Notes: a model not told the origin generated them from the sequence alone. DNA of 64,000 nucleotides from a virus (IMGVR_UViG_3300042934_000426:40951-104950); one strand, 5' to 3'. Shown: positions 1,579 through 63,885, counted from the first letter of the stretch. A program made the numbers and translations.

Positions 1579-1860
1579 CTAGTCTATCCCCCTATATTTT
1601 GGGTCATGAACCCAGCCATTTGTACTTCTATATAATTCTACCCCATTCTTCGGGTCTACGAAAACGTCCTTTTCCGAAATGCCGTGTAATTCCGCTAGCT
1701 CGCGCTTTCGAAGCTGGTGGGGAAGTAAGTCGGTCTTCGGAAGTTGTTTATCTAGCTCTTCGAACGTCCGCTTTTGGTATTCGTCGGATATATCCCGAAC
1801 GTAGACGGGGAATCCCGCTACGCTCGGTACACGCTTCTTTCGTTGGTGTATGGGTATCAT
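1579..1860 (-). CDS. Hypothetical protein
   Basis: 93-aa ORF whose start overlaps the upstream stop (ATGA). Confidence 0.6.
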   Translation of the reverse strand: MIPIHQRKKRVPSVAGFPVYVRDISDEYQKRTFEELDKQLPKTDLLPHQLRKRELAELHGISEKDVFVDPKNGVELYRSTNGWVHDPKYRGID

Positions 1861-2033
1861 TCAATACTCACCTTCACTTCCTCCTTCGGAAGGGCTCCGC
1901 GAACCTCTCGACTGTGCTTGAAACAGTGGATTCCCTGTACCCATTTTTTCGGGTCTTTCGGGTCAGGGTAACCTAGGTTCCATCCTGAATGGGTCAGCTC
2001 ATTACAGATAATACAACGTGTTCGTCTAGCCAT
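1857..2033 (-). CDS. Small Cys/His (putative Zn-binding) protein (58 aa)
   Basis: Manual translation MARRTRCIICNELTHSGWNLG...IHCFKH; AGGAGCTGG SD. Confidence 0.55.
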   Translation of the reverse strand: MARRTRCIICNELTHSGWNLGYPDPKDPKKWVQGIHCFKHSREVRGALPKEEVKVSIE

Positions 2034-2046
2034 TTTTACCAGCTCC

Positions 2047-2565
2047 TTAATTTTCTGTGTGGGTCATTAATTTCTTCCTAGTTTCCTTCGCTATTCTTCC
2101 AGCTTCTTCAGGGTCTTCGAAGTAACCTAGGTAGTGGCTAACGCCTTTAACTGTTACATTTGCTTTCCACTTTCGAAGCCTTTCGTTCCAGCTAACCCCA
2201 CGAATACCGCTCTTCGTACCTGTAACAGCACCTTTACGGTTCTGTGCATTTTGACCCCTAGTAACCACTCGAAGGTTGCTCCGTTCATTATTGAATGGAT
2301 TATGGTCTACATGGTCAACTACTACGTCTTTCCTTCCGTAAGTACCCATTATCCATTGGTGAAGACCGTAAACAACCCGTGATTTTCCTGAATAAATCGC
2401 ACCCCGTATATAGGGCTTACCGTCCGAATACACTATACGCCAGCTATTAGGCAATTCTTGAACCTTTGGAAGGTCTTCGGTGCTAATGAAGACCTTCTCT
2501 TGTTTATCTTTGTACGTTACGTAAATTACTGTGGTATCGCCTAAGACTTCGAATTCGTTTTTCAT
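2047..2565 (-). CDS. HNH endonuclease with C-terminal AP2 domain (free-standing homing endonuclease type)
   Basis: VVDHVDHNPFNNERSNLR HNH motif, then SGIRGVSW...KWKA...YLGYF AP2 motif; adjacent to the DNA polymerase gene. Confidence 0.9.
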   Translation of the reverse strand: MKNEFEVLGDTTVIYVTYKDKQEKVFISTEDLPKVQELPNSWRIVYSDGKPYIRGAIYSGKSRVVYGLHQWIMGTYGRKDVVVDHVDHNPFNNERSNLRVVTRGQNAQNRKGAVTGTKSGIRGVSWNERLRKWKANVTVKGVSHYLGYFEDPEEAGRIAKETRKKLMTHTEN

Positions 2566-2569
2566 AGGG

Positions 2570-5170
2570 CTACCTCACTTCTATATTGGCTTTCTTAAAG
2601 AGCGGAATCATATAAGCTATGTCGTCATATGTGACGTCGGTTGCTTCTTTCTTCTCTTTCTTCGGCTTCACCCATGCTGTACCGTCAGCGTCCCAGCTTA
2701 CATCTAAGGCATGTTGCCATATCTTACCGACGGCTGGTTCGGCTATGATAGGTAGAATTTCCGTAAAGCCTTCGAGCGGTGCTTCCATAACCTCTTTTAT
2801 CCAGCGTGCTCCTTCCGAAGCGTATTCGATTGGACATTCAGCCTGGATTTCATCGTGGATTTGCATAACCTGTTTGATATACGGTGCTTCCTTGATGGAA
2901 CGCTTCTTAATCTCCACCATGGCTCTTCGGATGATATCACTTGCTGACCCCTGAATAGGTGTGTTCATGGCTTTGTTTTCTGCGGACTTCCGAATAAACT
3001 CTTTCGGGTGATTAATGTCAGGAATCGGTCTTCGGTTTCCGAAGAGGGTTTCCACATATCCGTATTCTCTAGCGAAGCTGATTTGACTGTCCGCATACCC
3101 TCTAATACCTGGGTAGGTCGCCATGTAGTTGTTGATGAATACTTTCGCTTCGTCTTTGGTCATACCCATTTGTCGGTCTTTGGATAAGCCGAATTCGGTC
3201 ATCCCATAGACGATTCCGAAGTTAACTTTTTTGGCACGATATCGATACGGCTTAAACTTACTCTTTACTTCGTCGATGGTGCATTGTAGCTTGAATACTT
3301 CTCTTGCCACTAGGCTATGAAGGTCAATGTTATCGATAAAGGCTTGAATCATGTTCTTTTCCTGGGCGAACCAGGCGAGAACCTTTAGCTCAATTTGAGA
3401 ATAGTCACATCCGATAAAAATGGTTTCTCCGCTCAATTTATGCGTGATAATCATAATGTTCGGACGGGTAAAAATGTTCTGCTGGGTATAGTCAGCGGTT
3501 AGGTCATAGCTTGGTGCTTCGAAGACCCCTCGAATTCCCATCGGGTCGTTATCGGGTCGTGGGATATTCTGCAAATTCGGCTTCTTCGAAGATAGTCGCC
3601 ACGTACTAACAAGATTGAGCTGGGTGTGCAATTTATTGGTGTCTTTTCGGCAAAACGGAAGCATACCATTCACATAGGTACTAAGAATTTTGGTGTACTT
3701 CGAACGCTCCTTCAGTACTTTCATAAAGGCGCTGTCGCCTTCGTAGCTGTCGATTATGAGCTCCATATTGTCTTTCCCTGTTCCAGGTATTCCTGTCGTC
3801 TTCGAGCGCTCTACGCCCCTTGTATCGACTTGTAGGACGTGGAAGAATAGCCATGACTTATGCTGAGGACTTCCCCAGGAAAACGGCTTCGGTGTCTTGA
3901 TTTCTAAGGCTACAGGGTCACCACGCCATTGACCCATTCCGTAAACCCCAGCGGGTACAATGACGTTACCGTGGTCGTCGACGCCCGCATGGTCTTTCGT
4001 AACCTCTCGTAAGGCTTCGTAGAGTTTTTGTTCGATACAGTCGTCTTCCCAATCTCCCGCTTCGATTTGCTCTTCGGTCATGGTTTCTCTTCCGTATAGC
4101 GCACGAAACGCTACCCGCTCCATATCCCGAAGCTTATCGGGATTCACCCGCCAACCCGCTAACTCAATTTCTCCCAGGGTCATCATAAACGGGACATTCA
4201 GCTCGAAGTACACGTCGTCTAAGCCTTCAGCCACTAGAAGCGGGTAACACTTTAGATACACACCCAGCCCCCAATCACTGTCGGAACAGGCATAGTCAAC
4301 GCTATGCTTATCGACGGGCAATTCGTTAAACGTGCGGTAGCGGGATTGTTTCTTCGTCTTCGGAAGTCCCTTTTTTGCCCCCGACTTGTAGTATTCGCCA
4401 GGGATAGGTTCTTCCCATTCGTGCTTTCCAACCGTTTGCTTAAAGGTTTTAATATTATCTACATGAATCAATCCATGCACCCATCCATCTTTGTCTGCTA
4501 ATAGAGCTTTTGTGGCGGGCTTTAATCCGACTTCGGTTTCTCCTTCTGCTCCGACGGTTTCGGGTAAGGCTAGTTGCTTCACCATCACCAACGTACAAAT
4601 GATTTTTCGGGTCAACGTCTTCGGGAACATATCAATGCCGTGTAATAAGCTCCATTGGTGCTCGGCTTTGATGTTATGGGCAATGACTAGGATTTCAGGG
4701 TCTTCGAGAAGAGGTTTTAAGAACTCTTGCATGATGAAGTCTGTTTCCCAATTCGCTCCGTAGCTAGTATGGTTCATAGGGAAGTAAAACGCCTGACCGA
4801 TTTCCCAGGCTACCGATACCCCTACGATTTCGTGGTCTTGCGGGTCTTGGGTGTCGTCTTCAGGGTCACCGTTTGTTTCATAGTCGAAGCTAATGATTTT
4901 CTTCTTTCGAATTTCCTGAGCTATGGTTCGAAGCTTCGGAAGGTCATTTTTTCCGACCGCATGATAGCCTCTTCCTGGTAGCTCTACATTTAGTATTTGC
5001 TGGACTTCAGCGGTGCTTTCTGCCTGAGCGATTCGTGCCTTCGCTTGCGGACTTAACTTCGTTGGGGTCGTGGTTCTACTTGGTGCGATTACTCGCTTCG
5101 GCTCTTCCCTCTTCGGAAGTGCCTTTTTCTTTTGGCTTGCTACCTTCTCTTTGAGCTTCGCTAGGCTCAT
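2570..5170 (-). CDS. Family A DNA polymerase with 3'-5' exonuclease
   Basis: Exonuclease motifs SFDYET, AHNIKAE, YACSD; polymerase motifs RLSSKKPNLQNIP, DYSQIELKVLA, RAKKVNFGIVYG, QIHDEI. Confidence 0.95.
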   Translation of the reverse strand: MSLAKLKEKVASQKKKALPKREEPKRVIAPSRTTTPTKLSPQAKARIAQAESTAEVQQILNVELPGRGYHAVGKNDLPKLRTIAQEIRKKKIISFDYETNGDPEDDTQDPQDHEIVGVSVAWEIGQAFYFPMNHTSYGANWETDFIMQEFLKPLLEDPEILVIAHNIKAEHQWSLLHGIDMFPKTLTRKIICTLVMVKQLALPETVGAEGETEVGLKPATKALLADKDGWVHGLIHVDNIKTFKQTVGKHEWEEPIPGEYYKSGAKKGLPKTKKQSRYRTFNELPVDKHSVDYACSDSDWGLGVYLKCYPLLVAEGLDDVYFELNVPFMMTLGEIELAGWRVNPDKLRDMERVAFRALYGRETMTEEQIEAGDWEDDCIEQKLYEALREVTKDHAGVDDHGNVIVPAGVYGMGQWRGDPVALEIKTPKPFSWGSPQHKSWLFFHVLQVDTRGVERSKTTGIPGTGKDNMELIIDSYEGDSAFMKVLKERSKYTKILSTYVNGMLPFCRKDTNKLHTQLNLVSTWRLSSKKPNLQNIPRPDNDPMGIRGVFEAPSYDLTADYTQQNIFTRPNIMIITHKLSGETIFIGCDYSQIELKVLAWFAQEKNMIQAFIDNIDLHSLVAREVFKLQCTIDEVKSKFKPYRYRAKKVNFGIVYGMTEFGLSKDRQMGMTKDEAKVFINNYMATYPGIRGYADSQISFAREYGYVETLFGNRRPIPDINHPKEFIRKSAENKAMNTPIQGSASDIIRRAMVEIKKRSIKEAPYIKQVMQIHDEIQAECPIEYASEGARWIKEVMEAPLEGFTEILPIIAEPAVGKIWQHALDVSWDADGTAWVKPKKEKKEATDVTYDDIAYMIPLFKKANIEVR

Positions 5171-5182
5171 AGTTACCAGCTC

Positions 5183-5359
5183 CTATCTAAAATACCGTGG
5201 GTGAATGTCCTTTGACTGAAGAGTGTGCAAATTGCCTTCGTCGTCTTCCCCTATGAATTCTTGCGGTTTATCAGGACTATACCCACTTGGATTTTGTTGC
5301 TTAACGGTTACCCATAGACCACTTGCTAATTCCAATCTTACACCGATTTTTGGTAGCAT
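5183..5359 (-). CDS. Hypothetical protein (58 aa)
   Basis: Manual translation MLPKIGVRLELASGLWVTVKQ...; AGGAGCTGG SD. Confidence 0.55.
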   Translation of the reverse strand: MLPKIGVRLELASGLWVTVKQQNPSGYSPDKPQEFIGEDDEGNLHTLQSKDIHPRYFR

Positions 5360-5371
5360 ACTTACCAGCTC

Positions 5372-5749
5372 CTATTCACAAATTCTTTTTAGATACTTTT
5401 GGCGTATCTCTTGCATACGTGGCGTCGGAAGGTAGTATTTCTTGGATTCCCTTCGAATCAGTCCTAGTTGCTGAAATAACTTTAATCGCTTTAAGACGGG
5501 CTTATCACTGTAGCCTAGCTCGCCATAAACTTCCTGAGCGGTGACCACACCCCTATCGACGATGAAGGTAATGAGCGCCTTCGTCAGGTCTTTGCTTCCC
5601 TGTTTATTCGTCGGGTGAAGCACGGTGCGAATGAATAACAGGTCTTGAATGGAAAGGGGTTGAATGTCCTTATAGTGACCGCCCCGCTCTTTCCAGCGCT
5701 CGACGTCTTTTTGGTAATTCGATAGCACTTCTAACGCTTTTGCGTCCAA
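5372..5749 (-). CDS. Winged-helix DNA-binding protein
   Basis: VTAQEVYGELGYSDKPVLKRLKLFQQLGLIRRE wHTH pattern; AGGAGCTGG SD. Confidence 0.7.
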   Translation of the reverse strand: MDAKALEVLSNYQKDVERWKERGGHYKDIQPLSIQDLLFIRTVLHPTNKQGSKDLTKALITFIVDRGVVTAQEVYGELGYSDKPVLKRLKLFQQLGLIRRESKKYYLPTPRMQEIRQKYLKRICE

Positions 5750-5803
5750 TGTTGACCAGCTCCTTTGTCAGAATTCAGTACGACTTCGTACGTTATATGA
5801 TTA

Positions 5804-5831
5804 AGTATAACCAACTTTGAACAAATGTCAA
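5804..5831 (-). promoter_or_regulatory. sigmaA-type promoter TTGACA-N16-TATACT with TTGTTCAAAGTTG in the spacer
   Basis: Direct reading of the minus strand upstream of the wHTH/DNA polymerase run. Confidence 0.65.
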
Positions 5832-5866
5832 CAAGAAAAGAAGCCCATTTTCAGGGCTTCCCTTGT

Positions 5867-6085
5867 CTAATTTTGACAGTCCTCACAATTTTCCCATATA
5901 CCCACAATTTCTAAGGTTTCAGCGTCTACGTACAAGTAGACGTTGCTATCACGCCAGCGCCATAGCCCTAAAACCTCATGGTCAGGATGACCTACTTCGT
6001 GCCCGCTCCAATCGCTTTCCCAAAAAAGGTCTTGGTGGTCGACCCACGTTTGACCGCACCCTGGGTGTATTTGTTTTTCTCCCAT
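5867..6085 (-). CDS. Hypothetical Cys/Trp-rich protein
   Basis: 72 aa; AGGAGCTGG SD. Confidence 0.6.
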   Translation of the reverse strand: MGEKQIHPGCGQTWVDHQDLFWESDWSGHEVGHPDHEVLGLWRWRDSNVYLYVDAETLEIVGIWENCEDCQN

Positions 6086-6098
6086 ACTTACCAGCTCC

Positions 6099-9000
6099 TT
6101 ATGTGTTCAAGTATTCAATGAACTTCGGTAACTTCCGAAGCCCATCACGGGTACGTTTAATCATGCTATGCTTCGTGAGGATTGCCAGTCGGTCATTCAC
6201 CTGTTTTCGCTCGAATCCTAACATATCGATAATCTCGGCTGGCTTCAGAATATCGTTCTTTCGGAAGAGCTCTAGGATTTCTTCCGATACGGCTACGTTC
6301 TCCCCGAAGTCCATGTTTTCAAGGGTTTGGCGAATCTCTTCCGCTTCTTCTTCGGTCAGCTCGGATTCTTCTTTGCTCTTGGCACTATAAATGTCTAGGC
6401 GGGCGTTTTGGTTGTCGTAAATCACTTGGATAAAGTCAGCTACATACTCCACATGGTCAGGATTCACAATCACCTTCTCATGCGCTTCGTCGGTTGAATG
6501 AAGCAAGCTTGCTAGACTAATAGCCATACGTGCAATCTTCTTCCGAAGGTCAGACGGCTCTAAAAGCGGAATGTCCTGAGCGTAGCCGTACTTCTCGCCT
6601 AACTCGTCAGCCTTCGCTAGAATCTTACGCATAGCGGGCTTCGTAATCTCAATGTGTTCAGGTTTGCGTGACCACGCCCATAGAATCGAATCCCGAAGAG
6701 CTTCGGAAGTGATTAGTTGAACTTCGGGCTTGTCGTATTCCTGATTGAGTACCGCCTTCGTGACGTCACCTGACTGAAGGAATATCGCCATATCCAAACG
6801 TCTGATATCTGCTGGTGAAGCGAACAACGGTTTTAAGGCTTCTACCCCATGCGTGAAGCTCGATAGCGTTCTTGCCTTCGCTGGGTTCGTTAAAAGGATT
6901 AATCGGACACGGGCGTTGGTTTCGGTGTTGACCGTACGGTCTACTCGAAGTACCCCTGTGGTTCTCGCTTCGGTAATCTTACCAAAGTCTTCAGGGTGTA
7001 ATTCAGAAAATTCGTCGATTGCGATTAGCTTGCGGTCACTAAGCGGGTATTTCCCCCAGGTGATGAACCATCGTTCACCCATTTGCTCTAGGCGGTAGAC
7101 TAATCCTGTACGGGACGTTCCTTCCCCTGACGTCATATTTCCTAGCCCCGCGAATTCCATAATGTTGCTAACAAGCTGGGTCTTCGCTTGCCCTGAATCT
7201 CCGACGAATACCGTTTCCAGCCAGCCACGCTTTTCGAGCTGACCCTGGAAATAATAGTTTAAAGCGGAATGGTAGGTTAATAGTACCGCCAGGTGTGGCT
7301 CGAAGCGTTCTCGTACCAGGGTCACGTTGTCTACCAGGTCGCCTACTAACAGGCTCACTCTATCGTCAATCGTTTCCCCTTCTTGCACCTTGAATACATC
7401 TAATCGTTGTCTAGCCTCTTCGGTCATTTCAAACTTTGATATGCTATCCTCTAACGGCTCTTGCTTTTGGCTCAGAATGGTCGCCATAGCGTTTTTCGGG
7501 TGACTATAGACATAACCCTCTAGGTCATAGTGTGTATTCGCCTGTACGTCATTTCCGACGGCATACACCTTACGGGTCACGTACTCATTTCCTTCTCCGT
7601 CTACTTCCTTCGAAGACCCGTCTTCCCCTTTGACCGTCTTTACACGGTCAGCCATGGGCACCACTAGGAGCTCGGTGATATTTTCGTGTTCCAGCACTTC
7701 GGATTTAACCTTCTTACAGGAAGCTCCTGAATGGTGGAAGAGTATTCCTTTTAGCTGGGTATCATTTTGGTTGGTGGCTTCGATTAGGAATCGTTCATTT
7801 TCATGGAATTCCCGCTCGTATAGCCCACCGAAGTCGTGCATAATACAATCTTTGTCACAGAACGGTTCATGGCTACATACATAGCGAACCTTCTTTGGCA
7901 CAATGTAAGGCGTATCCATTTTCCCTGATACCAGGGCGCTAAACGCTACTTTCTTTCCTGTGAATTCGGCATTAGCTGTCTTCGCTAGGTGCATGTGCTC
8001 GGCTGGCTCTTGGTCAATGGCGAAGTCTTCGTGGGCTGGGCATGCACGCCCCGCACATGGAACGGTTTCATAGTCACGTCCCTTACGCTCTCCTGATAGG
8101 CTTCGAATGAAGGCACAACCGAAGTGGTACTTTTGGTCTTCGTACACCGTTTTAATACACCCAATCGTAGACGCTTGCACTTCCGAAGGAGAAGAGCTAG
8201 TGAACGACTTCGGAATCTTTTTGACCCAATCGCACAAAATCTTGACCGTTTCGCTCATAGGGTAACCAGCGTCTTTATAGTACGAAGCTAGCGCCATTGT
8301 CGCTTTGTTACGGTCGCCTGATTTGAGGATTCCACGCTCGATGATAAATTGAACACATACAGGTACACCTTCCATTTGCTTTAGTACGGTGTCCTTTAGG
8401 GTTACACGGTCTGTATAGAGCTTATCAACTTCTTCCCATGCTTCGACTTTACTCGCATACCATTCGTGAATGTCTTCGTTCAAATTGTACTCACATTGGT
8501 CAGGCGGGTAGAGGTCAGGACGTGGTGACTTTGCCAATCCATTAATGATGTTCCGAAGGTCGCTTTTCACTTCGTCATGGGTCAGTTCTACTTTGAATAG
8601 CCCGCTCTTATAGTGGATGGAATTCACCAGGCGAAGCATGCGACGGGTTCCGTAAATGGAAGAGGAATCTAAGCTTTTTAGTCCTAGCTGGGTTTCTAAG
8701 GTAACCGCGATAAACTTGATAATTCGGTTTAGCTTTTTATGTGGCTGGATTCCCATAATCGTCGGATTCGCAATCACATGGAAGCCCTTCGAACCGCTGA
8801 AGTACACCCTGATTTCGTCTTCAGTTACCTGAAATCGCTCCGTGAAGTAATGAAGAATCTTTACGACGTCACTTCGGCTCATTTCCAGGTTTTTAATCCA
8901 TACAAAATCAGTACACGCCTGGTCACTGTCCACATAGTCATTAATCGATTGATTCGTGTCTTTTGATAACGGAATACCCATTTCGTAATTGCGAAGGTGT

Positions 9001-9368
9001 AATAATAGGTTTTCAGGTAATAGTCCGATTAATTCGTCCGCCTTTACCGCTCCCATTTCGACCAGTCCTGGGGCTTCCTGAATAACACCTTCTTTTACTT
9101 CCGAAGTAAGACTTCGTGAGCTATCAATATCGAAGAATAACGGCATATAAAGGAGCTCGGCTTCCCCATCAGGTCTTACCTTGTTACGAAAAGTTTGAAT
9201 GGTGGAAAATACGTTGTAATTGCCGTATTGTTGCCTGAAGTCTTCCAGCTTATCCGCTTCGGTGCGGTTCCATTTCGTGTTCACGCCCGTTTGCGGGTTC
9301 TTGTGGTAGACGTCCACATAGAGGAAGTCCTCTAGTTTGATTTCGCTTTTCTTTTTCCCTTTTGCCAT
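6099..9368 (-). CDS. Fused AEP primase / MCM-like replicative helicase
   Basis: AEP motifs FFDIDS, YFSGSKGFHV and RMLRL; PriCT/PriL-like PVCVQ...GDRN region; Walker A GDSGQAKT, Walker B IAIDEF, MCM-like TSRTGL, ILLTNP and RRLD; C-terminal wHTH. Confidence 0.85.
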   Translation of the reverse strand: MAKGKKKSEIKLEDFLYVDVYHKNPQTGVNTKWNRTEADKLEDFRQQYGNYNVFSTIQTFRNKVRPDGEAELLYMPLFFDIDSSRSLTSEVKEGVIQEAPGLVEMGAVKADELIGLLPENLLLHLRNYEMGIPLSKDTNQSINDYVDSDQACTDFVWIKNLEMSRSDVVKILHYFTERFQVTEDEIRVYFSGSKGFHVIANPTIMGIQPHKKLNRIIKFIAVTLETQLGLKSLDSSSIYGTRRMLRLVNSIHYKSGLFKVELTHDEVKSDLRNIINGLAKSPRPDLYPPDQCEYNLNEDIHEWYASKVEAWEEVDKLYTDRVTLKDTVLKQMEGVPVCVQFIIERGILKSGDRNKATMALASYYKDAGYPMSETVKILCDWVKKIPKSFTSSSPSEVQASTIGCIKTVYEDQKYHFGCAFIRSLSGERKGRDYETVPCAGRACPAHEDFAIDQEPAEHMHLAKTANAEFTGKKVAFSALVSGKMDTPYIVPKKVRYVCSHEPFCDKDCIMHDFGGLYEREFHENERFLIEATNQNDTQLKGILFHHSGASCKKVKSEVLEHENITELLVVPMADRVKTVKGEDGSSKEVDGEGNEYVTRKVYAVGNDVQANTHYDLEGYVYSHPKNAMATILSQKQEPLEDSISKFEMTEEARQRLDVFKVQEGETIDDRVSLLVGDLVDNVTLVRERFEPHLAVLLTYHSALNYYFQGQLEKRGWLETVFVGDSGQAKTQLVSNIMEFAGLGNMTSGEGTSRTGLVYRLEQMGERWFITWGKYPLSDRKLIAIDEFSELHPEDFGKITEARTTGVLRVDRTVNTETNARVRLILLTNPAKARTLSSFTHGVEALKPLFASPADIRRLDMAIFLQSGDVTKAVLNQEYDKPEVQLITSEALRDSILWAWSRKPEHIEITKPAMRKILAKADELGEKYGYAQDIPLLEPSDLRKKIARMAISLASLLHSTDEAHEKVIVNPDHVEYVADFIQVIYDNQNARLDIYSAKSKEESELTEEEAEEIRQTLENMDFGENVAVSEEILELFRKNDILKPAEIIDMLGFERKQVNDRLAILTKHSMIKRTRDGLRKLPKFIEYLNT

Positions 9369-9483
9369 TTCCGTTTCCCCCTGTGAGCCTACTTCCGAAG
9401 TAAAGCCTGGGTCGGGTCGCTCCTTATGAGCTTACCTTGCCTTCTTTATCGCTTCGAAGGGCTCGATTAATAATGAAAAGAAT

Positions 9484-9516
9484 AGACCCCTGAAGAGCGA
9501 ATCATTCAGGGGTCTT
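9484..9516 (-). terminator. Intrinsic terminator
   Basis: AGACCCCTGAA...TTCAGGGGTCT inverted repeat followed by a T-rich run on the minus strand. Confidence 0.7.
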
Positions 9517-9534
9517 CATTTTGGTTTCGAAGAA

Positions 9535-10185: not shown

Positions 10186-10248
10186 AATGTTTTCCACCTT
10201 TCTGTCAGCTATCGGCTGAACACTGTAATATGATTTGCGGTAGCCTTC

Positions 10249-10450: not shown

Positions 10451-10499
10451 GGAGCGTCGGTGTAAATCCACCGATACTTTGTTGGTTTGACCCCGCCTA

Positions 10500-55386: not shown

Positions 55387-55467
55387 TTGGTCTACCCCCT
55401 TCGTTAAATAGAAAAGGCTTCTTCCGAAGCCCCTTCGTTGTCCTTCTTATTTTAGCAAACATTGGCA

Positions 55468-58400
55468 CTACTTGGCTATCGGAATTACGAGCATACCTTC
55501 AGAAGAAGTTTTTCCCTTCACGACGATTTCACCGTCCACGGCTCTTATGTGGTCAGGCTTCGGAAGAGCGATAACATACGCCTGGCTTTCATTGTACAGG
55601 TCATAGTTACTCCTAGCGTAACCTTGTGCCTGGCTGTATAGGGTCGAGAAGCACGTATAAGAATTGTTCTTGTCTGCGTCGTTTCCTTTACCCTTCGATT
55701 CAACGAAGCCGTTCTTTCGGATAAAGTCTAGCTCCTTTTGACCAATGCCACGGTAGATATAGTTTTCGTCGTCAGCGAATACCTCTTTGCCCAGGGCTTC
55801 CCTTCCGATTCGTCGAAGTTCGTCTTCGCTGAGTAACCTTCCGTGCTTCTTTTCATGGTGCTGGTGATGGTGCGTATGGGCTGGGTAGTGAAATCCCTTC
55901 CATACCTCCTGATACGCTTCGATTGCCCGCTGGCGTTCGATTTCATTCGGTGTATTCATGACCACACACGGAACATGGGTAAAGTCACACAGGTGACTAG
56001 CTTCGTAGCGGTGTTGACCGTCGTGTATATCATAATTGAAGCCTATCACAATCGGTTCTAGATTTTCACCCGCTACCATACGTTCGACGTTCTCCTGTAC
56101 CTTATCCCAATTCGTTGCCTTTTCCGTTTGGTAAACCGTTTTTAATCGGTTGAGTGGGATATAAATGACTTCCGAAGGATTCGGTACGTTATAAGCGCTT
56201 CGGCTACCCCTGAATTGGGCGTTTAGGTTGGTACTGTGTATACTACCTAATAACTCTTCTAGGCTCACCCGACGCATGTTTCCAGGTACGTCGAAGCTCT
56301 TCAGCAATTCCATTTCCAGGGCTTTCTTCAGGGCTTTGTTCTTCGAAATGTAGCTCACTAGGGCTTCCATGTGCTTGTGCATGTGGGCGCGTTCTTTTCC
56401 TAGTGGGAAAGGTGCTCCTAGGGCTTTGACCGCCCCTTCTTCTGTTCCATGCACCAGGTAGTTGTTATAGCGTTTGTCCTTCTTCAATTTATCCTGTACG
56501 TAGCTTTCGAAGACCCTGGCGAAGACTTCGGCTGGTTGTGACCAATAGTGTGCCCCGTTCTGTTGCTTGCCTGGCTGGGTCATTTCCATACGGCTCATGT
56601 ACTCACTTTTGCCTGTTTGGATTTCAATATGACCTCTGTACGGCTCACCGCTGTACTTCCCGCCATTTTGCTTTAGTTGAAGCTCTTTTGCCAGGTAGTG
56701 CGGTAGCTCGTTTAGTTCCCGTTTCCGCTTTTGTTCATACTTCTTAATCTCTTTTTCCCTAGCTGTGTCATTGCTATAGTAGGAGCTCGTCTTCACCCGA
56801 CTAATAGCGGTGTCATACTGGTTGTTAATCTTACTCGACCAATGCTGGTACACTTCTTCAGGCTTCATGCCACTACCGACTTGTCTACGCATTTCAGGGT
56901 AGTAGCGTCCGATACTCTTCGCTTCGGAATCGAGTAGGAGTTGGACTGTCCCGCCTGGCTCTCCTGGTGTCGGCTTCTCAATCGCTTCCATGACGTTGTT
57001 AAAAAGCTCTTTTAGCTTCGGGTCATGGTTGCCCATGCTTCCTTCCGAAGCGTGACCCAGGGATTCTTGTCCCCCATTGCTGTACTGATACATAATGTTA
57101 TCTAAGGCATGACCCCATTCGTGAGCTAGTGAACCCGCTCCCCCGTACTTCGTCATATTAATAACCTTACGGTCAGGTTCATAGTGAGCTAGTGAACCAC
57201 CCTTCCCTCTCGCTCCGAAGGCAATGGCTAGTCGTCCGTTAAGAGAAATATCCTTCGGGTCGATTCCCAGCACGTCGGATAGGTCGTTAAAGGCTTCGGC
57301 ACAGCGCTGAAGGTGGTACTTCCCGCTAGAATCATTGACCCAATTTCCGAACTCGACGCCACGCACCCCGAAGTCTTTCATCAGGTCTTCAGGCTTCATG
57401 ACCTTCGTTGGTTTCCCGCCTGTACGAAGGTGCTCGGCTTCGGCTTTGCGCTCCCATACCTTATTTTCTTCGCCTTTTTTCTTCGGTGCCTTTTTAGCTT
57501 GCGGGGTCAGGTACTTGTCCCATCCTTCTTTTGTGTTCTTGTTCACGGTCTGAATCGTTCGGTCACGGCTGTCCCAATCGGTAAAGAAGTTATTGAATTT
57601 CTCCCCCAGGGCTTCGAAGTTGAACGCTTGCTTATCCTTCATACCCTGAATAAAGCGGTCTTCGTATTCCTTTTTGAGCTTTTTGGCTTGCTCGATTTCT
57701 TCGGGCTTCAGTGGGAAACGCTCATACTGTGAAATACCGTTTGCGCGCTTCGTTTGATATTCAATCGTTCGTGCCCAGCTTGAAAGGTTCTTTGTGCTGG
57801 TATTGCGTCCGTATTCGGACAGTTCCCGAATGGCGTTACGCATATTTTCCCAGGTCTTAATCCCCGCTATTTGTCGATGAAACTTCGTCATAGCCACTAA
57901 GTAGGCTTTACGGGTTTCAGGTGTGGACGGGTCAGGCTTCGGAGCCATTCTATCGAAGAGCAATTTCTTCATGATAGCTGTTGGAAGCTCCGTCCCGTTG
58001 GCATGCTCGTCTTCGAAGCTGAATCCTGGTAGTAGGTTCGCCTTCGTGACCATCTTTTCCGCAATCGCCCCGCTCATTTTTTCTAACTCGTCTAGGCTCG
58101 TTGCGGTTGGCTTCGCCTTGAATCCAGCGATAAATTCGTCCTTACGTGCTCCCCCTACCTTGTCGCCTACGTCATACGCTAGTTCTCGATTCTTTTGGGC
58201 TTCGTGACGTGTATCTTTGGCGTTCTTTTTACCAGCGGTTTTGGGTTTGGTAGCTCCACCTTCGGAAGTGGCTTTGGGTTTTCCTGAAACAGGCTTTCCA
58301 GCTCCGCTTGACTTAGTTTCGGTGGTTGCTCCTTTGCTAGTACTTTTTGGTTTAGTTGTTTTAGTAGCACGTTTACCCGCTCCTTCTGTTTTCGTAGGTT

Positions 58401-58797
58401 TCGAAGTGGTTTTCTTAGGTGCTTTTGTGGTCTTCGGTTCTTTTACTTCCGAAGCTTGCTTGCTAGTCTTTTTTGGCTCTTTTCCTTTGCTTGCTCCTGA
58501 AGCTTTTTTAGGTTCGGCTTTGCCTTTACTTTTACCAGCATTTTTCTTCTCTCCCTTTTTGGGCTTCGAAGTTTTATCGTGATTTTCTTGGTGCTCTTTT
58601 AACTGTGCCTTCGTTGCCTTTTTTGCTCCCGAAGCTCCTGGGATAGCCCCCGCTAGCACTTTCCCATCTTTAATGTAAATATGGTGACCTTTAACGGTTT
58701 TCCACTCACCGCCAGGCGGTAGCTCTTTATGAACCGCCTTGGCTTGTGTCCGTGTAATCGCTTTGATTAGGTCAAATTCTCCTGGTTTGAGTATCAT
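55468..58797 (-). CDS. Polyvalent protein: LPD5/LPD1-like zincin, ParB-like and ART-like domains
   Basis: DVGDKVGGARKD; GVEFGNW...AHEWGHALD...EVFARVFESYV; PIVI...IHDGQHRYEA; YRGIG...CFST..YA. Confidence 0.8.
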   Translation of the reverse strand: MILKPGEFDLIKAITRTQAKAVHKELPPGGEWKTVKGHHIYIKDGKVLAGAIPGASGAKKATKAQLKEHQENHDKTSKPKKGEKKNAGKSKGKAEPKKASGASKGKEPKKTSKQASEVKEPKTTKAPKKTTSKPTKTEGAGKRATKTTKPKSTSKGATTETKSSGAGKPVSGKPKATSEGGATKPKTAGKKNAKDTRHEAQKNRELAYDVGDKVGGARKDEFIAGFKAKPTATSLDELEKMSGAIAEKMVTKANLLPGFSFEDEHANGTELPTAIMKKLLFDRMAPKPDPSTPETRKAYLVAMTKFHRQIAGIKTWENMRNAIRELSEYGRNTSTKNLSSWARTIEYQTKRANGISQYERFPLKPEEIEQAKKLKKEYEDRFIQGMKDKQAFNFEALGEKFNNFFTDWDSRDRTIQTVNKNTKEGWDKYLTPQAKKAPKKKGEENKVWERKAEAEHLRTGGKPTKVMKPEDLMKDFGVRGVEFGNWVNDSSGKYHLQRCAEAFNDLSDVLGIDPKDISLNGRLAIAFGARGKGGSLAHYEPDRKVINMTKYGGAGSLAHEWGHALDNIMYQYSNGGQESLGHASEGSMGNHDPKLKELFNNVMEAIEKPTPGEPGGTVQLLLDSEAKSIGRYYPEMRRQVGSGMKPEEVYQHWSSKINNQYDTAISRVKTSSYYSNDTAREKEIKKYEQKRKRELNELPHYLAKELQLKQNGGKYSGEPYRGHIEIQTGKSEYMSRMEMTQPGKQQNGAHYWSQPAEVFARVFESYVQDKLKKDKRYNNYLVHGTEEGAVKALGAPFPLGKERAHMHKHMEALVSYISKNKALKKALEMELLKSFDVPGNMRRVSLEELLGSIHSTNLNAQFRGSRSAYNVPNPSEVIYIPLNRLKTVYQTEKATNWDKVQENVERMVAGENLEPIVIGFNYDIHDGQHRYEASHLCDFTHVPCVVMNTPNEIERQRAIEAYQEVWKGFHYPAHTHHHQHHEKKHGRLLSEDELRRIGREALGKEVFADDENYIYRGIGQKELDFIRKNGFVESKGKGNDADKNNSYTCFSTLYSQAQGYARSNYDLYNESQAYVIALPKPDHIRAVDGEIVVKGKTSSEGMLVIPIAK

Positions 58798-60215
58798 CGT
58801 GTAAACCCCCTCATGAACGCCTGAACGTCCCCTAGTGACTTTTCTAGAGCGTCCCTGTCGTCAATCGCTCCTACGTATAAGTGTAAGCCTTCGTCGTCGA
58901 TATGGTGATGGAGTAGGGTGTGACCTACATTTGACTTCCGAAGTGCTTTAATCGCTTTTAAAAGTAACGCCTTTAACAGGTCTAGCTTGCCTTGTTCGTT
59001 GTAATCAATACCCTTACCGTGGTCTTTCACCTGTATAATGCTAGGGTCATAGACACCTATTTGCCAGCCTTCTTCCTTGAATTCGTCGAGCTTATCGACG
59101 ACGGCTTTGTACCCATTCTTCTTGGCGAATATTTCGTAAGGAGATACCTTCATAGGCTTCACGTCACGTCCCCATAGCTTCTTTAGTTCTTCTGCTTGTT
59201 CGTTGAAGGTGCTATAGTTTTGCTCAGGTGACCAACTACTTGTGTCGATACCTTTCAAATGCTTTAGAACGAAGCCCATCATCTTTTCCATTGTGCCTTC
59301 GTTGTAGTGGTCATTAAAGTCCTCAAGGATATCTTGTAGTTCCTTTGGTCGCCCGTTTGTGCAATCCAAAAGGTGCTTCTTCGGTACAAGTGCCTTTACG
59401 ACCGCTGGGGCTTTCTTTTCGGTGAAGAAATCCACAATTTCCTTCGTGTCATTTCCTTTGCTCCGTCCGTCCGTGTACTTACTTGGTACAGGTAGTCCCT
59501 TTGCTTGTCGGTCAGCTATCCACTTTTGACGGTCGTCGTGGTCTTTGTGGTCGAAGGCTGGACTTTTGAAATAGGCACAGTTTCCGAAGTCATCCCATGA
59601 CCCCTGTAGTTTATGGATATAGTCGAAACCGTTCGCTAAGATATTGTCCAGTCGGGCTAGCTTCGTGCCGTGGAACATTTCGACGGTTTCTTCGGAAGTT
59701 TGCTCTTCCTTTGGCTTTGCTGGTTTGGCTTGCCTTTTTAGTTTTGTATCAATAACTAGCTTCGGTTCTTTCTTCGAAGGTGCTTTTGCTCCTGTCTCCG
59801 TTGCTTTCGGTTTGGCGGTGGTGCTAGGTTTACTTCCACTAGCGGGTTTAGGTTTTGGGCTACTTGATACCCCTGAAACAGTCTTTTTAGGCTTTTTAGA
59901 AATCTCACTCTTTTCAGCTCCTTTGGTTTTCGAAGCTGGTGTTTTCGCTTTGGTGTTTTTCTTCGCTTCTTTATCGATGTGTGCCTGGTGTGCTTTTAGG
60001 TGTTCCTTCGTCGCCTTCTTAGGCTTCGTCACCCCAGGAATACTACCCGCTAACACTTTGCCGTCCTTTATGTAGACGTGGTGACCTTTAATCGTACGCC
60101 ACTCGCCCCCGTCGGGTAGGTCTTTATGGACGCTTTTGGCTTGGCTTCGGGTAATAGATTTGAATAAATCCAGGTCGTCATTGACTACCTGGATTCCGTG
60201 TAGGTTTACTAGCAT
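58794..60215 (-). CDS. Polyvalent protein with an ADP-ribosyltransferase-like (PARP/HYx-type) domain
   Basis: MFHGT...NILANGF...FGNCAYF; N-terminal module shared with the downstream gene. Confidence 0.7.
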   Translation of the reverse strand: MLVNLHGIQVVNDDLDLFKSITRSQAKSVHKDLPDGGEWRTIKGHHVYIKDGKVLAGSIPGVTKPKKATKEHLKAHQAHIDKEAKKNTKAKTPASKTKGAEKSEISKKPKKTVSGVSSSPKPKPASGSKPSTTAKPKATETGAKAPSKKEPKLVIDTKLKRQAKPAKPKEEQTSEETVEMFHGTKLARLDNILANGFDYIHKLQGSWDDFGNCAYFKSPAFDHKDHDDRQKWIADRQAKGLPVPSKYTDGRSKGNDTKEIVDFFTEKKAPAVVKALVPKKHLLDCTNGRPKELQDILEDFNDHYNEGTMEKMMGFVLKHLKGIDTSSWSPEQNYSTFNEQAEELKKLWGRDVKPMKVSPYEIFAKKNGYKAVVDKLDEFKEEGWQIGVYDPSIIQVKDHGKGIDYNEQGKLDLLKALLLKAIKALRKSNVGHTLLHHHIDDEGLHLYVGAIDDRDALEKSLGDVQAFMRGFTR

Positions 60216-60244
60216 GGTTGAACCCCCTTATGCTTCGGAAGGCT

Positions 60245-60505
60245 CTAGCCCTTCCATCGTTCTACCTGTCTGTTAACTAATTTTCTAGGTGGCTCGGATT
60301 CGGTAAAGTAGGCGTTGTAAATGGTTCTGCCTACTCGGACTTTCATTTCCATGATGTGCCCCTTCTTTACCAGCACCTTCAGTTGTTTACGGGTCGCAAT
60401 TCCCGCTTCGGTTAGGCTTTTCGCTAATACAGGATAGCCCGTATCTCTCACTAGCACGTTGACTGAATTTCGGACATAGTTAACATAGTTTTCTTGTAAT
60501 TTCAT
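60245..60505 (-). CDS. Hypothetical protein, possibly wHTH
   Basis: 86 aa; AGGAGCTGG SD. Confidence 0.6.
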   Translation of the reverse strand: MKLQENYVNYVRNSVNVLVRDTGYPVLAKSLTEAGIATRKQLKVLVKKGHIMEMKVRVGRTIYNAYFTESEPPRKLVNRQVERWKG

Positions 60506-60750
60506 GGTCTTACCAGCTCCTTTTTATGCTTAACTACCAGGCGAAGTCGTTGCAAATGGTCAAATGCGTTCAGTTCGTTGTACATGGTCGGTATGTAGTC
60601 GAACCAATTCCCGCCCTGGGCTTTTAGTTGCTCGTTAGCTTCGTCCCTCATAGCCGTTACTTCGTTTTCCCATTGATAGTCTTTCATACCGATAATTTGC
60701 TCTTCGGTGTACTCTCGTACAATTTCAATCCTGATTTTTTTGTCTTCCAC
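60502..60750 (-). CDS. Hypothetical protein
   Basis: 82 aa, GTG start; AGGAGCTGG SD. Confidence 0.6.
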   Translation of the reverse strand: MEDKKIRIEIVREYTEEQIIGMKDYQWENEVTAMRDEANEQLKAQGGNWFDYIPTMYNELNAFDHLQRLRLVVKHKKELVRP

Positions 60751-60772
60751 GTTCCCCAGCTCCTTCGTGAAT

Positions 60773-62083
60773 CTATTGGTCTATCATTTTACGAATCTTT
60801 TCTAGTTGGGCTTCGATATTCGGGTCAGGGGCTAGCCCACGCTTTGCCCGCTCTTCCGCTATCAGCTCTGCGGTTGTTTTCCTCTTAAATGTACCATCTT
60901 TATCCACATTGTAGAAGCGGGAAATTCGATGGGGTCTGCAACTACAGTTTGGATGGATAGGAAAACAGGCTCGCCAGGCTGTCGAAGGTCTGCCCATATT
61001 GGTTTTTCCCGCCCATACGTATTTCATATCGTTGTCGTAGCTCTCTTCGGAAGGCGGTACTTTTAGGACGATGAACTCTCTCCCTATTACTAGACTTCGG
61101 CAATGCTTACACGCATTGACTGACCCGATACCTGTAACCCGTTCGCCTTCTTCTAATCCCGATAGGTAGGCGTCATTGGTCGCCATAGCTAGTTCAGTCA
61201 TGGCAACCCTTCGCCAATCTCGGTTATGGTCACCGAAGCGGTCGAAGAGCTCTTGTGCTAGTTTTTGGGCTGTCCATCGTTCTTTCTTCGCTTGTATCAC
61301 TAGCTGGCGAACCCCCGCTATATGCTTTTCACTAATTTCGGTTAGTTTATCCCCAGCGTGGAGGCTGGCGTGTCTGACGGCTTCGGTTTCTTGTGCTGTA
61401 AGCGGGAGCACTTCGACTTTACGACCTTTGCGCTCTTCTTTTTGCTTTTCCCGAAGCGTTAAGACCACGCCTTCTTTCCTTGCTGGTTCGATAGACTGAG
61501 GCACACGGTCTAGGTAGCCTGATAGCACTTCGAAGTTTTCCCGCTCTGCCTGGTTGTGTATCTTTCCGATAAATCCAGCCCGAACCATGAATTCTTCGGC
61601 TTTCTTGGCATAGTCGGGAATATCCTTCCGAAGGAATTCATCAAGCTTTTTCACTTGTGCTTGGGTCATGGCTTTTCCGTCATTGACCCATTTCATAAAG
61701 CTCTCCCGCTTCTTACGCCCCGCTTGAATGAGGGCACTCATGTTATTACGTCCCGAATCGGTTGCCTTTAGAAGGTCGAAGCCTTCGAAGCTCTTTTCGC
61801 TCGTAAATGGGCTGTCTGTTTCGGCTAGTGGTAAGCCTAGTAATGCCATTACATGAGTGAATCGATTGAGCTCTTCTTCGGCTAGGTCGGTGAAGAGCTG
61901 GTCTTCTGCCCAGGATAGAAGCGGGTCGGGATTCTTTTCCCATAGCTTGCTTTCGCTTGACTTCACAGGGAGCCTTTTGGTCTTCGGAAGCTTCTCAGCT
62001 TCGAAGAGGACATTCAGGATTTCATTTCGGTCTTTATCGTCTAGGTCTAGTAGACCTGAAGGTAGGTTTAATACTCGTCCCAT
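60773..62083 (-). CDS. MuF / SPP1 gp7-like minor head protein
   Basis: RRVAMTELAMA.N...ACKHC..L.G..F...PIHPNCSC; directly after the portal. Confidence 0.8.
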   Translation of the reverse strand: MGRVLNLPSGLLDLDDKDRNEILNVLFEAEKLPKTKRLPVKSSESKLWEKNPDPLLSWAEDQLFTDLAEEELNRFTHVMALLGLPLAETDSPFTSEKSFEGFDLLKATDSGRNNMSALIQAGRKKRESFMKWVNDGKAMTQAQVKKLDEFLRKDIPDYAKKAEEFMVRAGFIGKIHNQAERENFEVLSGYLDRVPQSIEPARKEGVVLTLREKQKEERKGRKVEVLPLTAQETEAVRHASLHAGDKLTEISEKHIAGVRQLVIQAKKERWTAQKLAQELFDRFGDHNRDWRRVAMTELAMATNDAYLSGLEEGERVTGIGSVNACKHCRSLVIGREFIVLKVPPSEESYDNDMKYVWAGKTNMGRPSTAWRACFPIHPNCSCRPHRISRFYNVDKDGTFKRKTTAELIAEERAKRGLAPDPNIEAQLEKIRKMIDQ

Positions 62084-63885
62084 GTGACCTCAATCCCCTT
62101 GCTTCGGAAGTCGTCTTCAATGGACTTCTTAATCTTGTCCTTCTTTTCCTTTTGGGCTTTCTGCTCGGCTGTCATTTTGGCTAGTTTTTCCTGGTGTCCA
62201 TGGTCGAGCTTCTTCACTTCCAGGTTTTGCTTATGGGTGTTTACAAGTTTGTTGCGGTCGTGTAGCTGGTCGACGCCTTTTTGTTGCATAGCGTGTTCAT
62301 GCTGTTTATCCATGATTTCAAGCTGGCGTTTGTGCGCGTCTTCTTCGCCTTCTTTGCCTCTTTCGTGTTCCACGTCGCCCTGGGCTTGTGCTTGCTGTTG
62401 CTGGTTTTCTTGCTGTTCTGCATTTATATCAGCCATGAATACTTGAATGAGCTGGGCGTTGGCTGGTGCATTAGCCCACTTCGGAAGTTCCCCGCCATTC
62501 TCCTTCTTGATTTCTTCGATATCCACGTCGTTTTCTTTCCACAGCATAGCCACCGTTTTCACACCCGCTTCGAGCTGGGTTTTCTGACGTTCTAGCTTTT
62601 TGTCTTCGTCCTCTTCGTCTACCCCTATCCATTCGAAGACGTATTCGTCGTCAATCAGGTCGACGACTTCGCTGTTAAATGTATCTGATAGGAAGTTCAT
62701 GAGCGGGATAAAGCCTTTATCCTTTGACCCTTCCATTTTGGCTTCGGTGTTATCTGAAGCGCTCATAGAATTACTTGACGTCCAACTCTTGAATCCGACT
62801 TCGTTCGGGTCAATTTGGTAGACCGCACAGGCTATGTTGAAGAGGAATTCTAGGAATTCGTTGAATTCCATATCTCGGTTGCTGTTTTTGAATGGGGTAA
62901 ACTTAAACCCTTGCCCCTCTTCAAGTGCCATAACGGGTACTGCCCATTTGCCAGGTGCTCCCGTGGTTAGGCTCTTCCAATGACGCTTGAACCCTTCTAG
63001 GTGCTTATCCTGGTATTTCCCTACGACTTCTAACACCCCTTGTGGTAAGTGGCTATGGCTGAAGTAGCTCGTATTATAGCGTACCCCATTCATAATGCCT
63101 GTGACGATTTCAATCAGGGTTTCCAGCTCGCTCATTCCGAAGTCCACCATATCTAGGTCGGTGCGTGGGTTTCGAATCGCATAGGCTAATTCGTCTTCGG
63201 TGAATTCCGCTACCGTACGACCGTTGACTTTTTGGACGTAGGCGATATTGTCGCCTCCCGCTTTGACCCCGCCTTTGGTTTCAGGGATATACACAGGCAC
63301 TTCGTAGTCTAGTTCTCCTGTCGGGTTGTTTAGTACTAGCTCAATCGTTGAGCCGTCTACTGCCCACAATTCAGCGACTTCGTTTTTGACGCTGGCTACC
63401 TTCTCGAAGGCTAGTACGTCTAGTGTGAGGGAATCATAAACAGTCTTCCGAAGGAAGGTGTTAAAATTGTCCTTCCGAACTTTGTTCTTGACCGCTCCTG
63501 TTTTGAGGAAAAATTCTTCGATTTCCATAGCCCGCTTCTTTTGGGCGTCGGTCATTTTGGCTTCGCGGTCTTTTAATCGAATACGGAAGCCCATATCCCC
63601 GTCGAAGCGCGGTCTTCGAGCGTAACGTGCCACCTGGTTGAGGCGGGTGTTAATGATAGCGCTCACGGCTGGTACTGTTGCCATTCTTCGAAGGGTTGTG
63701 TAAGGAATAGCCGTCGGCTTCGAACGAACGCCCAGGAAGCCTCCCATGTTATTAAATGGGTCAATAATGGCACTCTTCGGCTCTTGTGCTTTTTGCATAT
63801 CGTCTTTCATGGCTTTATAAAGCGCTTCGGATTCCCCAGGAAGCGGGGCTCTGTTGGCGTTCCATATGTGTAAGATTTCGCTCAT
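62068..63885 (-). CDS. Portal protein
   Basis: AIINTR.NQV, DG.TI, RNPR.D, G.SE.E, F.H...P.G.L, DMEF..FL and IDP.E.G motifs of SPO1/Twort-like portals. Confidence 0.92.
   Translation of the reverse strand: MSEILHIWNANRAPLPGESEALYKAMKDDMQKAQEPKSAIIDPFNNMGGFLGVRSKPTAIPYTTLRRMATVPAVSAIINTRLNQVARYARRPRFDGDMGFRIRLKDREAKMTDAQKKRAMEIEEFFLKTGAVKNKVRKDNFNTFLRKTVYDSLTLDVLAFEKVASVKNEVAELWAVDGSTIELVLNNPTGELDYEVPVYIPETKGGVKAGGDNIAYVQKVNGRTVAEFTEDELAYAIRNPRTDLDMVDFGMSELETLIEIVTGIMNGVRYNTSYFSHSHLPQGVLEVVGKYQDKHLEGFKRHWKSLTTGAPGKWAVPVMALEEGQGFKFTPFKNSNRDMEFNEFLEFLFNIACAVYQIDPNEVGFKSWTSSNSMSASDNTEAKMEGSKDKGFIPLMNFLSDTFNSEVVDLIDDEYVFEWIGVDEEDEDKKLERQKTQLEAGVKTVAMLWKENDVDIEEIKKENGGELPKWANAPANAQLIQVFMADINAEQQENQQQQAQAQGDVEHERGKEGEEDAHKRQLEIMDKQHEHAMQQKGVDQLHDRNKLVNTHKQNLEVKKLDHGHQEKLAKMTAEQKAQKEKKDKIKKSIEDDFRSKGIEVTWDEY

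Follow-up and report, generated by a model that had tools for sequence, protein, structure and literature searches.

The stretch of DNA analyzed here, called the window below, comprises 64,000 nucleotides of a viral genome (IMGVR_UViG_3300042934_000426:40951-104950) and carries an array of a short palindromic word, CTTCSGAAG, in which S is C or G. The window corresponds to bases 40951-104950 of the 104,950-bp genome, named G000, and window positions are counted from its first base. The array extends over window 1735..63453 and holds 83 exact copies, from the first at 1735-1743 to the last at 63445-63453, at a mean spacing of ~770 bp, both in intergenic DNA and in coding DNA, where all frames are used. 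G000 comes from a soil metagenome and represents an uncultured phage with a myovirus-type genome, whose genes lie almost all on the minus strand. The structural genes encode a portal, a head protease, a major capsid protein (MCP; phrog_752), a tail sheath, and a baseplate, and other genes encode PolA, an MCM-type helicase, SNF2 proteins, HU, a gpA-type terminase, RuvC, and a class II ribonucleotide reductase. The first 20-mer of G000 reappears 127 bases before the end (G000:1-127 and 104824-104950); such a 127-bp terminal overlap is commonly seen where a circle has been assembled, and its length matches an assembly overlap, not a physical repeat. The closest cultured MCPs are those of SPO1-like phages at ~37% identity, and a Megablast search of G000 against cultured phages gave no match. 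G000 was compared with four motif-bearing relatives (G001, G002, G003, and G011) and with the motif-free G004, an 80-kb contig that is 83% complete and has a near-identical 38-kb contig alongside.

Over-Representation and Geometry of the Word

The 83 copies in the window compare with 0.68 expected from dinucleotide shuffles, none of which held more than 3. A preliminary description of this DNA had counted about 80 exact copies of CTTC(C/G)GAAG and put the expectation from base composition below one. Both figures are borne out, and the six positions it gave as examples (1735, 2812, 5111, 12111, 33481, and 62102) are all in our site list. Genome-wide, G000 holds 127 copies against 0.65-1.0 expected by composition. 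A maximal-order Markov expectation was uninformative for CTTCSGAAG, since the motif dominates its own sub-words. The coding DNA of G000 contains 114 copies. A dicodon-preserving Euler shuffle of this DNA yielded 28.9 ± 4.9 copies (maximum 39), shuffling among synonymous codons yielded 8.0 ± 2.6, and a codon shuffle yielded 1.1. The dicodon-aware null model had been set beforehand as the test that could refute the enrichment, and the enrichment survives it. The counts in the relatives were 55-133 against 7-12 expected.

As previously described, the motif occupies both coding and intergenic DNA and several reading frames. Its copies in the three frames number 36/46/20 in the minus-strand genes of G000 and 4/4/4 in the plus-strand genes, while non-coding DNA, which makes up 5.7% of the genome, holds 13 of the 127 copies at twice the coding density. 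The copies are distributed uniformly along the genome and along the length of the genes, with ~90% of them inside genes. One intergenic copy, at window 19542..19550, forms the apex of an extended palindrome, GGGGAG CTTCGGAAG CTCCC, and another, at window 60233..60241, lies in the 29-nt gap between the gene of a winged-helix protein, p86, and the next gene.

When the two arms were scanned as CTTC-Nk-GAAG with k from 0 to 7, the sole peak was at k = 1 in every motif-bearing genome (133, 161, 191, 134, and 79 copies). Spacers of 2-7 bp were at background in these five genomes, and the inverse arrangement, GAAG-Nk-CTTC, was not enriched above background either. The true word is CTTC-N1-GAAG, a symmetric 4-1-4 palindrome. 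The center base is S in 127 copies and W (A or T) in 6 copies of G000. S also prevails in G001-G003, and G011 shows no bias (A30, T20, G17, and C12). The S-centered form, dominant in G000-G003, always carries one CpG. With the full sites masked, the half-sites CTTC and GAAG were still enriched ~2-fold on both strands of G000-G003. The sites are also placed more evenly than at random: the coefficient of variation (CV) of the gaps was 0.72 in G001, 0.85 in G002, and 0.76 in G011, compared with 0.99 ± 0.08 for random placement, and only one gap in G000 was shorter than 50 bp against 8 expected. This even spacing fits a function that covers the whole chromosome and not local regulation.

Distribution of the Word

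Five diverged lineages of a single soil-phage family have CTTC-N-GAAG as their most frequent 9-mer; their GC contents are 43-57%, and they carry 79-191 copies per ~100 kb, about one copy per 0.5-0.8 kb. It was the commonest 9-mer in 14 of the 17 IMG/VR loci with MCP identities of 72-80%, and complete relatives carried 107-151 S-centered copies compared with 3-8 copies of a control word. A third clade, whose MCPs are 66-68% identical, has the word with a free center, and distant SPO1-like relatives are without the motif. In a pair-of-sites scan of viral and bacterial collections, all dense dispersed contigs among the matches listed encode homologues of G000 proteins; the other dense matches among those listed were tandem repeats, and none of the listed matches was a bacterial genome with a dispersed excess. 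Moreover, five Paenibacillus genomes, which may not be hosts, showed no excess, with 100-139 sites per ~7 Mb compared with 119-212 copies of the control word. Within the family the word persists across this range of GC content and across CpG observed/expected (o/e) ratios of 0.56-1.3, which suggests that the reader of the word travels with the phage. Literature searches for this word found it only in primers or in CodY, STAT, and HSF sites.

Conservation of Individual Sites

The sites were compared between genomes at increasing distance. In pairs that are 96-99% identical, 230 of 231 motif sites were kept, compared with 93.9% of the flanking control windows (~14 losses expected), and the per-base divergence was 0.05% in the motif and 1.1% in the flanks. 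At ~80% identity, 36 of 43 sites were kept compared with 31% of the controls, with divergences of 2.6 and 15.6% in motif and flanks, respectively. At ~70% identity, 35 of 49 were kept compared with 8.6%, and the divergences were 9.2 and 28.3%. The divergence falls over a footprint of exactly 9 bp, positions 0-8 including the center, and is at background again at positions -1 and +9. Between genomes with ~50% protein identity, 18 of 63, 12 of 47, and 5 of 37 sites lay at the same codon-aligned position against ~0.1 expected, and the rest had turned over; ~70% of the sites are not common to G000 and G001.

The word also dictates codon choice. In G002, the spelling CTT-CNG-AAG was used for 32 of 35 LRK, 24 of 28 LPK, 16 of 18 LQK, and 14 of 21 LLK tripeptides, and in G000 for 18 of 25 LRK and 16 of 27 LPK. 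In the motif-free G004, none of 38 L-x-K tripeptides was spelled with the word, and other synonymous codons were used where the peptide is shared with the relatives. The recurrent tripeptides LRK, LPK, and [TAP]SE noticed in the preliminary description are real, as is xF[RG][SR]. Many G000 sites encode LPK or xSEx where the relatives have unrelated residues, and at orthologous positions the center sometimes flips between G and C, which in some frames alters the peptide.

Selection thus acts on the DNA word, even at the expense of the protein sequence, and each site is under purifying constraint. The use of all frames, of intergenic DNA, and of both gene orientations, the center flips, the 9-bp footprint, and the capture of L-x-K codons all point to this, as the preliminary description had proposed. 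The same logic of conservation was used in a study of the cyanobacterial palindrome HIP1 to argue for selection over replenishment (PMC5861425). Since individual sites are better conserved than their surroundings, some factor must read the word on double-stranded phage DNA, although this is unproven.

Loss of the Word and of Three Genes in G004

G004 holds 2 copies of the motif, which is the chance level. With SPO1-like sequences as the root, the MCP tree joins G004 to the motif-bearing clade of G011 as its sister (support 98/94) and nests it in the motif-bearing group, indicating that the motif was lost in this lineage. Two independent gains instead of one loss are less likely. G000 and its four motif-bearing relatives have 48 core genes in common, 44 of which were matched in G004. 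Sensitive six-frame searches with hidden Markov models (HMMs) left only three genes as truly missing from the region covered by G004, those of p86, of a SprT-like protein, and of p71. They lie far apart in the genome, and unrelated genes occupy their places in G004. This correlated loss nominates candidate readers and proves nothing.

The candidate reader p86 is a winged-helix protein of 86 amino acids encoded at window 60245..60505 (-), and the six-frame HMM search found it in G000-G003 and G011. Its AlphaFold2 model (pLDDT 88.8) has an H-H-H-beta-beta wing fold, and its top structural matches by Foldseek and VIA are without exception winged-helix domains, including several whose structures were determined in complex with DNA; the VIA Z scores of 6-8.7 are middling for a small domain. 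The family is small, with 19 clusters in 5.8 billion proteins, and scans of viral and metagenome contigs found relatives in the same clades only. The likeness of p86 to the DNA-binding domains of CodY or LexA was not significant (E 0.18-0.4), and CodY was outside the top 50 structural matches.

The second protein, p71 (window 47658..47873, -), is a CxxC...CxxC zinc ribbon of 71 amino acids encoded upstream of the head protease. A jackhmmer search found it in the five motif-bearing genomes and not in G004; its matches are generic zinc ribbons and, weakly, a translational-regulator phrog. The longest open reading frame (ORF) at this place, window 47566-47892 (+), is an antisense artifact, the conserved gene being that of p71 on the minus strand. 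The third, at window 16203..17528 (-), is a SprT-like zinc metalloprotease of 441 amino acids (Pfam PF10263, E 4.6e-10) with a HEMIH zincin motif, a Cys-rich zinc ribbon, and, judged by weak matches, a C-terminal helix-turn-helix (HTH). It is present in G001, G002, G003, and G011 and absent in G004. Four further genes were dropped as co-occurring genes or not counted as lost: p124 (G000:30155-30529) has a weak homologue in G004, p278 and p100 are not found in G011, and the gene for an RNase T-type exonuclease lies in a region that the G004 contig probably does not cover.

The preliminary description had offered HU, a ParB-like domain, and SNF2 proteins as possible binders. The HU-family protein is encoded at window 20117..20470 (-; PF00216, E 3e-22), and the ParB-like region, assigned by PHROG, belongs to a polyvalent protein of 1109 amino acids with an LPD1 domain at window 55468..58797 (-). 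A homologue of the latter with 37-38% identity over ~1050 amino acids is kept in G004. We do not favor HU, the LPD1/ParB-like protein, or either of the two SNF2 proteins as readers, because the motif-free G004 has kept them all. One SNF2-carrying protein, of 2302 amino acids (window 48478-55386, -), is encoded next to the LPD1 protein, and the position of both between the portal and the head protease suggests that they are virion-packaged polyvalent proteins.

Other Features and Recurring Words

The preliminary description had also called the variant without a spacer, CTTCGAAG, and one-mismatch variants of the word very common. CTTCGAAG is indeed frequent, with 33 copies at window 2115..63693 against 1.35 expected and 68 copies in the whole of G000. 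For its 66 coding copies, however, the dicodon null predicts 47.6 ± 5.3, and the relatives, with only 3-12 copies, show no enrichment. G000 alone shows a 4-fold excess of the pentamers CTTCG/CGAAG, and this genome-specific excess largely explains that of CTTCGAAG. No single one-mismatch variant of CTTCSGAAG exceeds 12 copies genome-wide, and the flanks of the word are not conserved. TTCGAA is likewise abundant in G000, with 187 sites against 45 expected from dinucleotides.

The CpG o/e ratio is 0.42 in G004, which is strongly CpG-poor, 0.56 in G011, and 1.0-1.3 in the other genomes. An apparent avoidance of TTCGAA in G004 (0 sites against 24 by composition) was not used, since the deficit is weak under a dinucleotide model (0 against 4.2), as G004 is CpG-poor. 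G004 has an oriented 8-mer of its own, CAGAGGCT, found in genes 31 times in sense orientation, mostly in frame 1, and 8 times antisense, where synonymous shuffles give 5.8 and 0.9, respectively.

Two further words recur in the window. TACCAGCTCCTT stands just upstream of minus-strand start codons at window 2037-2048, 6089-6100, and 60511-60522, and with 9 one-mismatch copies the family numbers 12 against 0.24 expected. Its reverse complement, AAGGAGCTGGTA, is a Shine-Dalgarno sequence plus a fixed spacer, and the top 12-mer of G001, AAAGGAGCTGGT (16 copies), belongs to the same family. An intergenic repeat, CTTACCATACATACG, occurs at window 13555-13569, 18925-18939, 19561-19575, and 19981-19995 (4 copies against 0.06 expected) next to motif-carrying intergenic hairpins, and may be a promoter or another regulatory box of the middle region.

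Among the accessory genes, one with HNH_3 and AP2 domains (window 2047-2565, -) resembles homing endonucleases, adjoins that of PolA, and is found in G000 only. The sole plus-strand block of G000, to the left of the window, contains a gene for an alpha/beta-type small acid-soluble spore protein (SASP; G000:22929-23093, +; PF00269, E 7e-22), which was not found in G001, G002, G003, or G011. G000 also encodes an Amidase_3-SPOR lysin, and together the SASP and the lysin point to an endospore-forming host among the Bacillota.

Candidate Readers and Alternative Explanations

From the compactness and two-fold symmetry of the word, one would expect a reader that is itself symmetric, whether a protein or an enzyme. 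We propose, with a probability of roughly 0.45, that CTTC-N-GAAG provides selected, distributed docking sites on double-stranded phage DNA for a symmetric reader encoded by the phage, of which p86 is the best candidate, and that the sites mark or organize the chromosome. The sites, spread along the entire chromosome without clustering at regulatory regions, would be bound by p86, perhaps together with p71 and the SprT-like protease with its HTH. Each site would serve ~0.5-1 kb, and the phage may in this way mark its own chromosome as self, compact it, or protect incoming or replicating DNA.

Several points weigh against this proposal. The half-site centers are 5 bp apart and thus lie on opposite faces of the DNA, a placement seldom seen with HTH dimers and more characteristic of DNA-encircling enzymes. 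As modeled, p86 is a generic winged helix to which no specificity can be assigned, and binding of the word is a candidate role only. The correlation between genes and motif comes from a single loss event in one lineage, and from a contig that is 83% complete. The G011 version of the SprT-like protein is without the C-terminal HTH, yet G011 keeps the motif; the sites of G003 show no even spacing (CV 1.00); and the reader might instead be encoded by the host.

In the main rival explanation, a site-specific enzyme of the DNA-modifying or restriction type acts on the word. It would come from the phage or the host and could be a Type IIP-like methylase, a nickase, or another base modifier, and modification of the sites would protect or mark the DNA. 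A contiguous palindrome of 8-9 bp with one unspecified center base is the typical shape of a Type IIP site, and the word has this shape, being compact, symmetric, and strict in its spacing. The 4-1-4 arrangement with half-sites on opposite faces would suit an encircling enzyme and fits an enzyme better than a classic HTH dimer, and the dominant forms in G000-G003 always offer a CpG. Moreover, G000 encodes a beta-class N6/N4 methyltransferase (PF01555; G000:40065-40862) that adjoins the ThyA gene just left of the window (region G000:39075-40862). Its solved relatives include M1.HpyAVI, M.MboIIA (which recognizes GAAGA), CcrM, and M.RsrI, all with E ~1e-10. The methyltransferase, however, is unique to G000 and has no homologue in the relatives: PF00145, PF01555, and PF02086 are absent from G001-G003, TGT/DpdA was not found in the four motif-bearing genomes searched or in G004, and ThyA occurs only in G000 and G002 among the genomes compared. 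Furthermore, restriction targets are normally avoided in phages and not enriched at least 100-fold. We regard an enzyme target as possible but doubtful. As a separate observation, G000 alone combines a beta-class methyltransferase with the excesses of CTTCGAAG, CTTCG/CGAAG, and TTCGAA.

A host-encoded reader is unlikely. In that case the phage would use the sites to recruit or titrate a protein conserved in spore-forming Bacillota, for instance a nucleoid protein or a global regulator. The core TTCNGAA with its odd one-base center is that of the CodY box AATTTTCNGAAAATT (PMC7349109), and the SASP gene and the Amidase_3-SPOR lysin suggest a spore-forming host with CodY-type regulators. On the other hand, the core is flanked by C/G where CodY needs T/A, the outer flanks are unconserved, and the similarity of p86 to CodY and LexA domains falls short of significance. 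The phages that carry the motif differ widely in GC and CpG content, a sign that their hosts may differ too, and a host reader would leave the joint loss of three phage genes in G004 unexplained.

A molecular drive without function, in which biased mismatch repair or gene conversion resembling very short patch (VSP) repair turns near-cognate sequences into the word, seems distinctly improbable. The enrichment is graded, down to ~2-fold for half-sites after masking and 4-fold for pentamers in G000, and the low share of sites common to G000 and G001 would agree with such turnover. However, no gene of the five motif-bearing genomes reached the Vsr family cut-off, although G011 had a single sub-threshold match. 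Nor is any methylase conserved, and the methylase-driven process suggested in the preliminary description is not favored, the one methyltransferase being confined to G000. The strong conservation of individual sites at orthologous positions with a sharp footprint is the pattern from which the HIP1 study favors selection (PMC5861425), and a blind drive does not predict spacing more even than random in four of the five genomes.

The word might also be a signal for a translocating host nuclease or pump (AddAB, SpoIIIE, or a Type I/III enzyme), like Chi or the FtsK-orienting polar sequences (KOPS), an analogy drawn in the preliminary description that we consider very unlikely to hold. Dispersed over-representation of 8-mers at about kilobase spacing is a known signature of such signals, the word shows this spacing, and a linear phage genome would profit from protection that comes in from both ends. 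The known signals are asymmetric and act on one strand, whereas this word is enriched only in the symmetric form with an exact 1-bp spacer, its single half-sites being ~2-fold enriched. The five Paenibacillus genomes, though maybe not hosts, had no excess. Finally, a by-product of codon usage, of a favored peptide, or of an RNA element can hardly account for the excess: frames 0 (LRK/LPK) and 1 predominate, but the word occurs in all three frames and both gene orientations, is 2-fold denser in intergenic DNA, and exceeds the dicodon null 4-fold and the synonymous null 12-fold, while an RNA hairpin is sterically impossible with a 1-nt loop and Rfam has no family in the window.

Comparison With Known Systems

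The analogy with HIP1, made in the preliminary description, is apt. HIP1, GCGATCGC, is the highly iterated palindrome of cyanobacteria (Xu, Lawrence & Durand, 2018, PMC5861425). Like CTTC-N-GAAG, it is a short exact palindrome, 15- to 300-fold over-represented at about one copy per gene, that lies within and between ORFs and is conserved between genomes in a manner read as selection; a role in chromosome structure has been proposed for both, and neither has been assigned a reader or function. HIP1 embeds the methylated CGATCG/GATC and belongs to a cyanobacterial chromosome, whereas CTTC-N-GAAG has a 4-1-4 structure with a free or S center, is viral, and has no conserved cognate methylase. In addition, a nested lineage has lost CTTC-N-GAAG together with three specific genes, which provides candidate readers.

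Literature searches for iterated palindromes in phages found only the HIP1 papers and the Cluster O mycobacteriophage repeat, a 17-bp sequence, TGTTCGG-NNN-CCGAACA, with ~34 copies per genome (PMC4351075). In Corndog, 14 of the 34 sites lie between ORFs and 10 more within ORFs near their ends (PMC4351075). Both repeats are inverted, specific to a phage lineage, and scattered over the genome, with invariant arms, a free center, and no assigned function. Unlike the Cluster O repeat, CTTC-N-GAAG is much shorter, has 79-191 copies, mostly inside genes, and rewrites codons and peptides.

The CodY box of low-GC Gram-positive bacteria is an AT-rich 15-mer (PMC7349109) that shares the TTC-N-GAA core with our word and is read by a winged-helix protein. 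The data argue against the identity of the two, since CTTC-N-GAAG has C/G at positions ±4 in all copies (T/A in the CodY box), no A/T flank consensus or outer AT-rich arms, and a copy number far above that of a regulon.

The arrays of ParB and KorB (parS and OB operators) and the site sets of Noc, SlmA, and MatP are likewise distributed palindromic docking sites, tens per replicon, that organize or mark a chromosome. Their sites are 12-16 bp long, with half-sites on one face of the DNA, and are read by ParB-HTH or similar proteins, unlike CTTC-N-GAAG. A co-occurring ParB-family reader was not found in the genomes compared, the sole ParB-like region being that of the LPD1 protein kept by the site-free G004. 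Chi, KOPS and the SpoIIIE recognition sequences (SRS), and the DNA uptake sequences (DUS/USS) resemble the word as genome-wide over-represented 8-12-mers of about kilobase density. They differ from it in their asymmetric, oriented form, in being shared with or set by the host chromosome, and in having translocases or uptake machinery as their readers.

Significance

Since the description of HIP1, highly iterated palindromes have resisted explanation, and to our knowledge none of them has an established reader or function. The present case is unusually tractable, with a small genome, a sharp 9-bp footprint, a natural knock-out lineage, and three candidate genes, one of which has a DNA-binding fold. 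In practical terms, such words are strong lineage signatures for the binning of phage contigs and place a constraint on the recoding of phage genomes. If the reader were identified, it would become clear why a virus gives up so much coding freedom for the sake of a DNA word, forcing nearly every LRK and LPK into one of 72 or 48 possible spellings, and a new mode of chromosome marking, compaction, or defense evasion could come to light.

A more speculative possibility, which we hold only tentatively, is that the word is a phage-encoded genome identity code. A small winged-helix protein dedicated to the task would read its ~80-190 selected sites and, aided by a zinc-ribbon protein and by a SprT-like protease tethered to the DNA, would mark or guard the phage's own chromosome against DNA-acting enzymes of host or phage origin; sites and genes could be lost as a unit, as in G004. 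If true, this would point to a form of sequence-coded self-marking that has not been described in viruses.

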